The notes under the pieces: generated by a model
Databases searched by the model: none
Seen by the model: only the letters and a program-made list of their open reading frames with translations
Told to the model about the DNA's origin: nothing
Source of the DNA: a virus
UHGV virus genome: UHGV-1991486
DNA length: 40,667 nucleotides
Strand: one strand, 5' to 3'
In this document: piece by piece, positions 31,778 through 35,629 of the stretch
Numbering within the stretch: the first letter of the stretch is position 1
Layout of the letters: each line of letters starts with the position of its first letter
Made by a program: the position numbers and the translations under genes

Positions 31778-32662
31778 ATGGATAAAGAGAAAAAAGCAAT
31801 CGAAAGAATTAAAATGGCAAGTGAAATGAGTCTACATCACTATGGTAGACCGCTTGTTTGTACGTATAGCGGCGGCAAGGATAGTGATGTGATGTTAGAG
31901 ATTTTTAAGCGATCCGGAATCCCGTTTGAAGTGCATAACAGCCATACAACGGCAGACGCACCACAGACCGTATACCATATCAAAGAAGTATTAAAAAAAA
32001 CGGAATTACAAGGAATTAAATGCGAAATCGAAATGCCAACATACAAAGGAAAACCAACAAGTATGTGGAAATTGATACCACAAAAGTTAATGCCACCGAC
32101 TAGACGGGTAAGATACTGTTGCTCTGTCTTGAAAGAGACGGGATGCCAAAATAGATACATCGCAACAGGAGTAAGGTGGGATGAATCGAATAAAAGAGCG
32201 GAAAGAGGAGAATTTGAAAAGCTTGGGAAAAACTACAATGAGAATGAGACTTTTTCTACTATTATGCTTATGAGCGATAACGGATCAAAGAGACGAATGG
32301 GTGAGCTTTGTATGCAACAGAATAAAATGGTTGTAAATCCAATTATCGACTGGACGCATTCAGATATTTGGCAGTACATAGAATCAGAACATATAGAAGT
32401 ATGCGATTTGTACAAACGTGGATATGATCGTGCTGGCTGTATCGGATGTCCTATGGCAGGCAAGAAGCGTTACAAAGAGTTTGCGGATTTTCCAAAGTAT
32501 AAGCAATTGTATATAAATGCTTTCGACAGGATGTTGAAAGAACGTAAACGAAGAGGAAAAGAATGTAAGTGGACGACAGGGGAAGAGGTATTTTTTTGGT
32601 GGATGGAGGATGAAAACATACCAGGGCAGATGAGTATAGAAGACTTTATTACGGAGGAATGA
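31778..32662 (+). CDS. PAPS-reductase-family (PP-loop ATP pyrophosphatase) protein, IbrA/DndC-like.
   Basis: PP-loop 'TYSGGKDSDVM'. C-terminal Cys cluster 'CIGCPMAGKKRYKEF'. 294 aa. Confidence 0.8.
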   Translation: MDKEKKAIERIKMASEMSLHHYGRPLVCTYSGGKDSDVMLEIFKRSGIPFEVHNSHTTADAPQTVYHIKEVLKKTELQGIKCEIEMPTYKGKPTSMWKLIPQKLMPPTRRVRYCCSVLKETGCQNRYIATGVRWDESNKRAERGEFEKLGKNYNENETFSTIMLMSDNGSKRRMGELCMQQNKMVVNPIIDWTHSDIWQYIESEHIEVCDLYKRGYDRAGCIGCPMAGKKRYKEFADFPKYKQLYINAFDRMLKERKRRGKECKWTTGEEVFFWWMEDENIPGQMSIEDFITEE

Positions 32663-32665
32663 CTA

Positions 32666-33067
32666 ATGGCGAAAACAGAAGAAACATGGATGGACGGGAT
32701 CACAACAGAAATGATGGAGCATATATGCGACAACCTGTGCAGGTATCCAGATCAGCTAAGTGAAATGGAACTGGAAGATAAACGCGCAGAGTGCAAGATG
32801 GGACGGTTTGTGTGCGATATTTTGAACCAGTATAACAAGGTGAATGATTTTGTGGACAGCCAGTGTGCGAAGTTGATGAATCAGATGCATGAGTTGAAAG
32901 AGCGTGATACGGCGAAAAAGCCAGAAGAAGTAGACTATGAATTAGGTTATTTCGTTTGCCCAAGTTGCAGAGAGTCAATATGTTTTATTGATGGACATGC
33001 AGAAGAGCACGAATGCTGTCTGAAGTGCGGCCAGAGATTAGATTTCGGAGGTTTAAATGAAATTTGA
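32666..33067 (+). CDS. Cys-rich hypothetical protein with a C-terminal zinc-ribbon.
   Basis: 'CPSCRES...CCLKCGQRL'. Confidence 0.45.
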   Translation: MAKTEETWMDGITTEMMEHICDNLCRYPDQLSEMELEDKRAECKMGRFVCDILNQYNKVNDFVDSQCAKLMNQMHELKERDTAKKPEEVDYELGYFVCPSCRESICFIDGHAEEHECCLKCGQRLDFGGLNEI

Positions 33068-33530
33068 AAACGCATGTAACTGCATAGTAGATTATTCAAT
33101 TTTAGAAAAAGCAATAGAAGAAGAATGCAGTAGAAGAAATATTACACCTAAAGAGGAATATAAAATTTATCTTTATCGTGGGTATGCTGGAATTTCGATA
33201 AAGCATGACAAAGTGTCGGTACACAGGATAATTGGTAAACATATTGTTGGATTCAATTTTGGTTCAGAAATTCATGTTCACCATATTGATGGAGATAAAT
33301 TAAATAATAATATTTCTAATCTTCAAGTAATTAAAAAATCATTACACACGAAAGAACATAATTTAGTTCAATATGTTTCAGAAGAATATAAAAGAAGTTT
33401 TGGAGATAGGATGAAGCATATTGTTTCAAGAAGTGATGTTGCAAAAGAAGATGTGATTTTTCTTAGAAATAAGGGATTAACAATCAATCAAATCGCTGAA
33501 AAACTAGTGTACTGTATTGTTGACATTTAA
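33057..33530 (+). CDS. HNH endonuclease. Its native 3' end is replaced by IS630 inverted-repeat sequence.
   Basis: 'VHHIDGDKLNNNISNLQVI...HTKEH' HNH motif. AT-rich. The last 8 codons (VYCIVDI*) are encoded by the IS left inverted repeat. Confidence 0.75.
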   Translation: MKFENACNCIVDYSILEKAIEEECSRRNITPKEEYKIYLYRGYAGISIKHDKVSVHRIIGKHIVGFNFGSEIHVHHIDGDKLNNNISNLQVIKKSLHTKEHNLVQYVSEEYKRSFGDRMKHIVSRSDVAKEDVIFLRNKGLTINQIAEKLVYCIVDI

Positions 33531-33584
33531 CTAAATATTTATAGCTATTATAGCCGCTTCATGTTAAAATAAAAGAAAACGGCG

Positions 33585-34103
33585 GTGATTTATATGGCAA
33601 GACCAAGAAAATATGTCATTAAACTTACAGATGATGAATTGAAGACATTAAAATCTATAATTCGCAAAAGTAATACATCTAAAACTATTCGAAGCAGATG
33701 CCAGATTATTATTGATTTGGATGAGGCTCATGGGAAAGTATTAACCCATGAGCAATCCGCAAGATCAAATGGTGTTTGCCTGACAACTGTAACGAATACA
33801 GTGACCAAATATTTTTCCGGTGGCATTGAAGCGGTTACCGAGTTCAAAAGAAATATCAATTCCGACAATGCAAGGCGTATCCTTGATGGACGTGCAGAAG
33901 CACGTATTATTGAACTTGCCTGCGGTCCTGTTCCAGAAGGTCATTCCAGATGGACTTTGCGTCTGCTGGAAAAAGAAGCCAAAGTAGTGCTTGATACACC
34001 GGTTAGCAAAGATGCTATCCGTAGAGCCTTAAAAAAAACAAACTTCGACCTCACAAAAATGAATACTGGTGCATTCCCTCAAGAGAGGACGCAGAATTTA
34101 TAG
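33585..34103 (+). CDS. IS630-family transposase OrfA (HTH DNA-binding part).
   Basis: HTH-rich 172 aa. Ends after the A8 run. Confidence 0.8.
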   Translation: MIYMARPRKYVIKLTDDELKTLKSIIRKSNTSKTIRSRCQIIIDLDEAHGKVLTHEQSARSNGVCLTTVTNTVTKYFSGGIEAVTEFKRNINSDNARRILDGRAEARIIELACGPVPEGHSRWTLRLLEKEAKVVLDTPVSKDAIRRALKKTNFDLTKMNTGAFPQERTQNL

Positions 34104-34108
34104 CTTGT

Positions 34109-34744
34109 ATGGAGGATGTTCTCGATGTATACGAACTTCCATATAACCCACAACGCCCCGTTGTTTGTATGGATGAAAAACCATATCAGTTACTTGGCGA
34201 GGCAAGATCCCCACTTCCTATGCGCCCCGGCAATGACCAGAAAGTAGATTCTGAGTATGTCAGAAATGGTACATGCAGCATCTTTGCATTCGTAGAACCG
34301 CTTGGTGGAGCTCATCATGTAAGTGTTCGGGAACATCGGACTGCAATTGACTGGGCAGAAGAAATCAAATATCTTGCCGATGTCATGTATCCAGATGTAG
34401 AAAAAATAATTCTTGTAATGGATAATCTTAATACACATAAACCAGCATCATTGTACAAACGTTACCCTGCTGATGAAGCCAGAAGAATCATGAAACGGTT
34501 GGAGATTCACTACACACCAAAACATGGCAGCTGGCTTGATATTGCAGAAATCGAACTTAACGTCATGACCAGACAATGTTTGAACAGAAGGATTGATAAT
34601 ATTTCAAATCTTCGTAAGGAATTATCAGCATGGGAAGTTGAACGAAATACCGTAGCCGCAAAGGTAAACTGGCAATTTCGAACGGAGGATGCAAGAATTA
34701 AATTGAATTCCTTGTATCCGACATTTACTACTGCATCTGAATAA
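34109..34744 (+). CDS. IS630-family transposase OrfB (DDE catalytic domain). The -1 frame is open from 34025.
   Basis: 'VMDNLNTHK...HYTPKHGSWLDIAEIELNVM' DDE_3 signature. Confidence 0.85.
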   Translation: MEDVLDVYELPYNPQRPVVCMDEKPYQLLGEARSPLPMRPGNDQKVDSEYVRNGTCSIFAFVEPLGGAHHVSVREHRTAIDWAEEIKYLADVMYPDVEKIILVMDNLNTHKPASLYKRYPADEARRIMKRLEIHYTPKHGSWLDIAEIELNVMTRQCLNRRIDNISNLRKELSAWEVERNTVAAKVNWQFRTEDARIKLNSLYPTFTTASE

Positions 34745-34848
34745 GATGCAGTAGTAATGTTAAATATCAACGATACAGCACACTAGACTGTGGGTATAAC
34801 ACTGTTTGTAGAAGATTAGGAATGCGTAATTAGATTGGAGTGAGTAAC

Positions 34849-35028
34849 ATGGGAGAATTAAAGAAATGTCCGTTTTGTGGTGGAGAAGCGACAATGAAAA
34901 TCCATTATGGATTTGACGAAAAAGTTATATCAGCTTTCGTGTACTGCGAAGAATGCGGAGTCGCAACGCGAAGATGTGCTTTAGAAACAACTGCTATAGG
35001 GAAATGGAACAGGAGGGTGGAAGAATGA
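34849..35028 (+). CDS. Lar-family restriction-alleviation protein (zinc-ribbon).
   Basis: 'CPFCGGEATMKIHYGFDEKVISAFVYCEECGVATRRCALETTAIGKWNRR' matches the Lar family (CPFCGG...C..CG...A...WN.R). Confidence 0.75.
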   Translation: MGELKKCPFCGGEATMKIHYGFDEKVISAFVYCEECGVATRRCALETTAIGKWNRRVEE

Positions 35029-35180
35029 TTAAAGTAAAAGCGGAGGCAAATTATGGTTTTGCTGGAACAAATATGACATTTGAAGAAGAGTTTGGTGATG
35101 ATGTAACTGATGAGGAAATCGAAGAAGCTATGAGAGATATGGTTATGGAACAGGTTAATTGGTCATGGGAGAAAGAGTAA
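35025..35180 (+). CDS. Small acidic hypothetical protein (51 aa).
   Basis: RBS AGGAGGGTGG. ATGA overlap with the Lar gene. Confidence 0.3.
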   Translation: MIKVKAEANYGFAGTNMTFEEEFGDDVTDEEIEEAMRDMVMEQVNWSWEKE

Positions 35181-35182
35181 TT

Positions 35183-35629
35183 ATGAACAGAGAAATACTT
35201 TTTAAAGCAAAGAGAAAAGATAATGGAGAATGGGTGGAAGGGTATGTTGTTGCATATCCTTCTGGAAAAGTGGAAATACACAAAATTAGCAAAGAATTAC
35301 CAGATATATTACTAAAATGCGAGATTGCTCCAAGTACTTTATGCCAGTACACCGGACTTACCGACAAAAACGATAAGAAGATCTGGGAGAATGATATTCT
35401 CAGATATAGTTATGACTATGATGGAAGTCCGTTTTTAAAAGATGGCGAAGAGATAAAATATCGTGTAGGTGCTGTGTTTTGGAGCGAATGGAGGGGATCA
35501 TGGGCAGTATGTGGACGAGGAAATAAAAAATGCACCAATAACGATGTTTTTAAATATAATCGGAATCCAAATAGAACGGAAGTTATCGGAAACATTTTTG
35601 ACAATCCAGAGCTGTTGGAGGTGGAGTGA
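35183..35629 (+). CDS. YopX-family protein.
   Basis: 'MNREILFKAKRKDNGEWVEGYVV' is the typical YopX N-terminus. Confidence 0.8.
   Translation: MNREILFKAKRKDNGEWVEGYVVAYPSGKVEIHKISKELPDILLKCEIAPSTLCQYTGLTDKNDKKIWENDILRYSYDYDGSPFLKDGEEIKYRVGAVFWSEWRGSWAVCGRGNKKCTNNDVFKYNRNPNRTEVIGNIFDNPELLEVE

Follow-up and report, generated by a model that had tools for sequence, protein, structure and literature searches.

An IS630-family insertion sequence in the CTAG site of a phage HNH endonuclease gene, with its transposase laid out in two frames

The virus genome UHGV-1991486, a 40,667-bp stretch of DNA that was analysed as a whole and is referred to here as the window, carries a small HNH endonuclease gene that is interrupted by an insertion sequence (IS) assigned to the IS630 family. 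The element occupies positions 33507–34783 (1277 bp), has a TA on either side, lies in the same orientation as the surrounding genes and accounts for 3.2% extra genome length. The open reading frames (ORFs), repeats and other features of the locus, including parts of a helix-turn-helix (HTH) coding region, are as follows in window coordinates:

33057–33506, plus strand: 5′ part of the HNH gene, codons 1–150 (Pfam HNH_3, 2.9e-9; PHROG HNH families; GC content 28%)
33505–33506, no strand: left copy of the target TA, within C-TA-G (empty sites read …AAAAACTAGACTG…)
33507–33531, plus strand: left terminal inverted repeat (IRL), 25 nucleotides (nt), matching the right repeat at 22/25; 14 other copies end identically
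33594–34103, plus strand: orfA, 169 amino acids (aa), coding for the N-terminal portion of the transposase, which binds DNA (HTH_29, HTH_32); the same 169-aa gene is called in all genomic copies
34031–34038, plus strand: A8 run, TT[A AAA AAA] A in the orfA frame, an X_XXY_YYZ −1 slippery heptamer in the ORF overlap
34109–34744, plus strand: orfB, 211 aa from the first ATG, with the DDE_3 catalytic domain (Pfam DDE_3, 1.3e-23)
34729–34757, plus strand: perfect 11-bp hairpin (ACTACTGCATC / GATGCAGTAGT) just inside the right repeat, extended stem −24.3 kcal/mol
34759–34783, minus strand: right terminal inverted repeat (IRR), 25 nt, read from the sequence
34784–34785, no strand: right copy of the target TA (read from the sequence and from empty sites)
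34786–34833, plus strand: orphaned 3′ end of the HNH gene (DCGYNTVCRRLGMRN, then stop), coding for the last part of the HTH turn and for recognition helix 3 (from the sequence; AlphaFold helix 154–160)

The left terminal repeat reads GTGTACTGTATTGTTGACATTTAAC and the reverse complement of the right one reads GTGTGCTGTATCGTTGATATTTAAC; the two agree at 22 of 25 positions, and both the repeats and the TA dinucleotides that bracket them (33505–33506 and 34784–34785) can be read directly in the sequence, as a first-pass annotation made from the letters of the window had described. An imperfect 25-nt inverted repeat is by itself weak evidence, because 45 further inverted pairs of 20 nt or more, spaced within 3 kb, are present in the window and because a repeat search of the window did not list the terminal repeats (the longest exact run between them is shorter than its 8-nt seed). 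The case for an insertion rests instead on an IS630 transposase lying between the repeats, on 12 of 12 empty sites and on 14 further copies with the same ends.

The interrupted ORF (33057–33530) runs into the left repeat and stops inside it, ending …KLVYCIVDI, and deletion of 33507–34785, that is, of the element and one TA, restores a 165-aa ORF ending …NQIAEKLDCGYNTVCRRLGMRN; the first-pass annotation had read both correctly. The predicted empty junction, ATCGCTGAAAAACTAGACTGTGGGTATAA, is present exactly in three IMG/VR contigs, and the same gene is uninterrupted, with the predicted empty site …GAAAAACTAGACTGTGG…, in 12 of 12 related contigs, viral and metagenomic, that are independent of one another. 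A second probe ended at the left junction and so detects filled and empty sites equally; every one of the nine metagenome contigs that it found is empty. Alignments of the empty-site contigs to the window end at 33507 and restart at 34782. The filled site thus reads C-TA-[IS]-TA-G and the 12 empty sites have C-TA-G, in which TA occurs once and the element is missing, and the insertion holds up in this comparison with relatives that lack the IS. The closest empty-site relative (contig L096) aligns over 855 bp at 99.3% on the left and over 1401 bp at 99.86% on the right, and the flanking phage DNA has diverged by 1–6% among relatives. Six contigs of 20–50 kb carry the truncated HNH protein, which is specific to the filled site. 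Named phages of Mediterraneibacter (Ruminococcus) gnavus were unusable as empty-site controls, since they have no HNH gene and the entire region 32.9–35.6 kb is mosaic.

Copies of the element outside the window were found by an exact-protein look-up with the 211-aa orfB product, for which 40,859 blocks of the assembly collection have an entry; ten loci were taken, on chromosomes of 2.8, 3.3–3.5 and 6.5 Mb. Full-length copies lie at unrelated loci in five assemblies and in one viral contig (L006), and one of the copy-bearing genomes, GCA_003584665.1, is Mediterraneibacter butyricigenes (PMC12876203). Each of the 15 copies shows 0–6 differences from their consensus over 1277 positions, the 14 copies other than that of the window being 99.4–100% identical to this consensus. 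The window copy has two differences, at 34174 and 34282, and both are silent. The IS630 clade to which the element belongs is very widespread among Lachnospiraceae and evidently active.

These copies are flanked as CTA-[IS]-TAG at unrelated sites, with a single exception in which one junction reads TGG, and it is because of these flanks that we take the target to be TA within CTAG. The TA target of the first-pass annotation stands and is refined in this respect. IS630 itself is described as preferring TA within 5′-CTAG-3′, according to the statement in PMC2170065 that cites Tenzen and Ohtsubo (1991). The element has G…C as its terminal bases, so that CTAG forms again at either junction, and a 2-bp TA duplication is for that reason indistinguishable by sequence from a 4-bp CTAG duplication; the TA duplication is assigned by analogy, from the mechanism of the family (PMC2170065). 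CTAG is depleted in this phage, with 19 sites against 38.5 expected under a Markov model (observed/expected 0.49), so that only about 18 target sites existed before the insertion. Together with GGCC (observed/expected 0.32), CTAG is the most depleted palindromic tetranucleotide of the phage.

Besides the window, the IS occurs in three viral contigs of IMG/VR, each time in another CTAG site (L006 3370–4646, L007 13158–13271 and L008 8695–8752). The copy in L006 is full-length, 99.7% identical to that of the window, and interrupts the 3′ part of an 86-codon ORF; those in L007 and L008 are cut by contig ends. Another arrangement resembles a composite transposon: two inverted copies (L098 5399–6675 and 8798–10071, also L099 and L104; OZ186719.1, OZ186712.1) lie on either side of a bile-salt-hydrolase-type gene (CBAH, PF02275) with two small ORFs. 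The outer flanks of this inverted pair are swapped between two genomes, which points to inversion by IS–IS recombination, and one of its junctions reads TGG in place of TAG. The IS was unmatched in PLSDB plasmids (megablast) and in 50,697 GenBank phage records (sensitive blastn), and a tblastn search of GenBank phages with orfB gave a single match, to a 4-kb metagenomic fragment at 57% identity.

Given the empty sites and a 165–166-aa length that is the norm among homologues, we conclude that the uninterrupted gene is the ancestral state and the insertion the derived one. This intact form prevails across 95 homologue protein clusters, one of which, 98% identical, holds 218 members, and it is shared down to 55% identity. 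The reverse direction, in which the IS-bearing state is ancestral and the uninterrupted genes arose by precise excision, can appeal to the fact that IS630 and Tc1 elements do move by excision (PMC2170065). However, the family normally leaves footprints, and the 12 empty sites are a clean single CTAG within an intact ORF; the uninterrupted length recurs in homologues as distant as 55% identity; and the IS is two silent substitutions from its consensus as against the 1–6% divergence of the flanks among relatives. We consider excision extremely improbable. The small distance of the window copy from the consensus, together with empty sites whose flanks are near-identical to those of the filled one, argues that the insertion is recent as well as precise, as the first-pass annotation had held, and we are highly confident that an IS630-family element moved recently into a CTAG site of the HNH endonuclease gene of a temperate phage.

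The window is a closed circular genome of 40,667 bp that was recovered in two assemblies, which may share one sample. One ENA contig of 40,786 bp (L108; 40,667 + 119) is 100% identical to the window and crosses its end-to-start junction, and another of 40,722 bp (L109; 40,667 + 55), also 100% identical, is linearised inside the IS; the end and start of the window join into a 424-codon ORF that covers the whole Terminase_3 model. These contigs bear on the concern that a multi-copy host IS was wrongly threaded into a phage contig during assembly, a concern raised by the high repetition of the IS in gut genomes and by the break of L109 inside it. Yet both assemblies, with overlaps of 119 and 55 nt, yield the same, 100% identical circle, the IS is crossed without a break in one of them, the site is single-copy in the 12 relatives and the target is exactly duplicated at both junctions, where a chimeric join would not make a precise TA or CTAG duplication. 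An assembly artefact is, in our judgement, hardly credible, and we take the insertion to be a property of the phage genome.

The genome encodes a serine integrase, a repressor, an ImmA-like protease, an anti-repressor, a replication module and an endolysin, and is related to M. gnavus phages, the relatives infecting that species; we regard it as a temperate Lachnospiraceae phage. Directly upstream of the HNH gene lies a PAPS-reductase-like gene (31778–32662; PHROG 424, 3.5e-45), which is also present in phiRgPS_6 and in whose place most HNH-bearing relatives have about 128 bp, a presence/absence mosaic.

The transposase identifies the family. Against the fused OrfAB protein, the NCBIfam model NF033545 scores 198.8 bits (cutoff 100; E = 1.3e-58) in one stretch that crosses the frameshift and spans model positions 14–297 of 299, and the Pfam DDE_3 model reaches 83.9 bits (cutoff 28.6). 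The residues D194, D277 and E319/E321 are invariant in 64 aligned transposases, and either glutamate could be the catalytic one. A PDB sequence search with the fused transposase returned no significant match to any solved transposase. Model score, terminal repeats, TA insertion and the HTH plus DDE architecture all place the element in the IS630 family, an assignment that the first-pass annotation had already proposed and that the sequence comparisons bear out. Its further claim that the HNH gene, the IS and their neighbours are AT-rich proved partly right: the HNH gene is strongly so, at 28% GC against 41.8% for the genome, whereas the IS, at 39.5%, is not notably AT-rich.

An addition to that earlier, sequence-only reading is that the transposase lies in two frames joined at the A8 run. 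The 0-frame stop of orfA comes 21 codons past the slippery run and the −1 frame of orfB is open from 34025, so that orfA and orfB become joined when the frame shifts by −1 at A8 or the mRNA gains an A there, the fused OrfAB having 383 aa after a −1 shift. A scan of species-representative genomes gave at least 80 related loci, mostly in Lachnospiraceae, at 50–90% aa identity. Among the matches listed, 63 of 80 relatives keep A8 and have their orfB at −1 to orfA, the phase A_AAA_AAA_A is identical in all of these 63, and a −1 shift gives an uninterrupted fusion of 378–383 aa in 61 of them, while the codons flanking the run vary freely. All 15 near-identical copies have A8. Distant relatives (52–55% identity, for example in metagenome-assembled genomes of Desulfovibrio and Succinivibrio) have one ORF and no A run. 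A few relatives, among them L009, L028 and L070, carry A9 (a single continuous ORF, as in L009) or A7 at the run, and such natural variation in homopolymer length could be a mutational on/off switch for the transposase.

A transposase split over two frames might also be read as a dead relic, in which an A9-to-A8 frameshift inactivated the enzyme and the insertion is either old or was mobilised in trans. The single ORF with A9 in L009, the few relatives with A7 and the failure to detect a frameshift-stimulating structure all lean that way. What speaks against a relic is that the run keeps the same phase in 63/63 two-frame relatives at 50–90% aa identity, with both ORFs intact in 61 of the 63 among the matches listed, and that all 15 near-identical copies, at different loci and in different genomes, carry A8, so that it is the A8 form that spreads. 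We therefore think a relic very unlikely. Because the phase of the run and the intact fusion are conserved among relatives of this divergence, the split transposase most plausibly reflects programmed recoding and not damage. The conserved two-frame layout is what Baranov et al. look for among homologues as a sign that slippage is put to functional use (PMC1088944), and the IS630 family is recorded as using frameshifting (PMC5009743).

The stop codon of the transposase (34742–34744) sits in the loop of the hairpin just inside the right repeat. A hairpin of at least 9 bp occurs at the same place in 55 of 61 unique relatives when each sequence is folded separately (median z = −5.8), and since 32 different arm sequences keep it, conservation is of the structure and not of the sequence. 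When the 3′ hairpin region was aligned with MAFFT, RNAalifold returned no pairs, the alignment being out of structural register. There is no U-tract after the hairpin (34729–34757). No intrinsic terminator was predicted in 32500–35500, which makes transcriptional read-through into the downstream Lar-like and other genes plausible.

The restored HNH protein matches Pfam HNH_3 with 36.9 bits (cutoff 24.8; 2.9e-9) and 10 PHROG HNH endonuclease families, down to 2e-14, and residues H56, H75, H76, N88, H97 and H101 are invariant among 59 HNH homologues. At its C terminus it matches HTH_23 with 21.4 bits, under the cutoff of 24.6, and PHROG 3855 HTH at 8e-5; the truncated protein has no HTH_23 match, and precomputed PF13384 or PF02796 matches are present in many HNH homologues. 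An AlphaFold model of the sequence P0002 (98% identical), made with the 59 homologues as input, has a mean predicted local distance difference test (pLDDT) score of 89, and its C-terminal helices 130–138, 143–149 and 154–160 (pLDDT 90–94) form a three-helix HTH. The break falls between L150 and D151, in the turn joining helix 2 and the recognition helix, in line with the location in the C-terminal HTH of an HNH endonuclease that the first reading had given. The top PDB fold match found by Foldseek is I-HmuI (1u3e; probability 0.99), followed by resolvase-type HTH domains; a PDB sequence search with the HNH protein gave nothing useful.

The HNH gene is sporadically distributed among related genomes, being found in 12 other contigs and missing at the equivalent place in phiRgPS_6 and RG-TP1. 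Its features fit a selfish, homing-type endonuclease that is dispensable, given that named relatives do without it, and the insertion was presumably tolerated for that reason. In the clusters P0095, P0083 and P0084, remnants comprising the first 27 or about 80 codons (11 and 30 contigs) continue into a DUF551-type protein. Such deletion-fusions are independent routes of decay of one selfish HNH gene.

Following from these observations, we propose that an active 1277-bp DDE IS of the Tc1/mariner type moved by cut-and-paste into a CTAG site, at its TA, most likely while the phage resided as a prophage in a host whose genome contained copies of the IS. The insertion swaps the last 15 residues of the HNH protein, those of the recognition helix, for 7 IS-encoded residues, so that the enzyme can most likely no longer target DNA. 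Slippage at the run may occur by the ribosome shifting −1 on A_AAA_AAA or by RNA polymerase adding an A. In either case most of the product would be orfA, with the HTH only, and OrfAB would be rare, its rarity keeping the level of transposase low. Rare trans-frame transposase is the usual way in which such elements limit transposition.

Several points weigh against this account. No stimulatory RNA structure was found downstream of A8 (minimum free energy −17.8 kcal/mol, z = −1.0 against shuffles), nor was a conserved purine-rich element resembling a Shine–Dalgarno (SD) sequence seen upstream of it when junction sequences were inspected by eye. The HTH assignment draws on sub-threshold hidden Markov model matches and a predicted structure, and the Foldseek match to I-HmuI is weak (E = 0.03; template-modelling score, TM, 0.34). 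Sequence cannot separate a 2-bp from a 4-bp duplication, the two filled-site assemblies may derive from the same sample, and a circular assembly is no proof that the IS-bearing genome is packaged or infectious. The event is nevertheless real and cleanly delimited; it is uncommon for a phage and mechanistically ordinary, and since its family, its target and its style of transposase recoding are all known, existing biology explains it in full.

IS elements are scarce in phages, 92% of which had none in a survey that counted about one copy per 346 kb (PMC3429520), and this IS clade is essentially absent from the 50,697 deposited phage records. The present case offers a delimited, precisely dated insertion for which filled and empty alleles are both at hand, and it illustrates a place where an insertion is tolerated, inside another selfish and dispensable gene. 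It also bears on annotation, as annotators tend to call A8 copies frameshifted pseudogenes, and it leaves the current understanding of transposition unchanged. It seems unlikely to us that the phage with the IS is fully viable and serves the element as a vehicle; this would run counter to the common view of phages as poor shuttles of insertion sequences (PMC3429520). Bearing on this idea are the closed 40.7-kb genome with its intact copy, which on this reading is competent for expression, and the three further viral contigs with the IS. If true, it could help to explain the copies of at least 99.4% identity in Lachnospiraceae chromosomes of 2.8–6.5 Mb.

Compared with known systems, the interrupted gene resembles the phage HNH homing endonucleases of the I-HmuI type, which are likewise free-standing, with an N-terminal HNH (HNH_3) followed by a C-terminal helix-turn-helix. 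It is also, like them, small, AT-rich and sporadic among related phages, and 1u3e is its best structural match. It differs in that identity to I-HmuI is only 20% over 90 aligned columns, with the weak Foldseek E-value given above, and in that no homing site or intron association was identified at its mosaic neighbourhood. The layout of the transposase recalls the −1 frameshifting of IS1/IS3-type elements, in which the upstream ORF is likewise DNA-binding and the downstream −1 ORF catalytic (PMC5009743, PMC1088944). With these and with IS elements that slip on A runs it shares an A-rich slippery heptamer in the overlap and a layout conserved among non-identical homologues. In contrast to these systems, neither a downstream stem-loop or pseudoknot nor an upstream SD-like stimulator was found for it, and its run is A8, as opposed to the A9 examined by Baranov et al. 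(PMC1088944).

The closest parallels are IS630 of Shigella sonnei and the IS630 family within the Tc1-mariner superfamily, with a like size of about 1.1–1.3 kb and terminal inverted repeats of about 25 bp. ISY100 is the bacterial member of this group that has been studied biochemically. Shared with the IS630 family is a transposase with an N-terminal HTH and a C-terminal DDE domain, and shared with IS630 itself are insertion at TA with TA duplication and the preference for TA in 5′-CTAG-3′ (PMC2170065 and the papers by Tenzen that it cites). IS630 and ISY100 have one ORF, whereas here the transposase lies in two frames joined at an A8 run; further differences from both are the conserved hairpin around the stop codon by the right repeat and the hosts, which are Lachnospiraceae.

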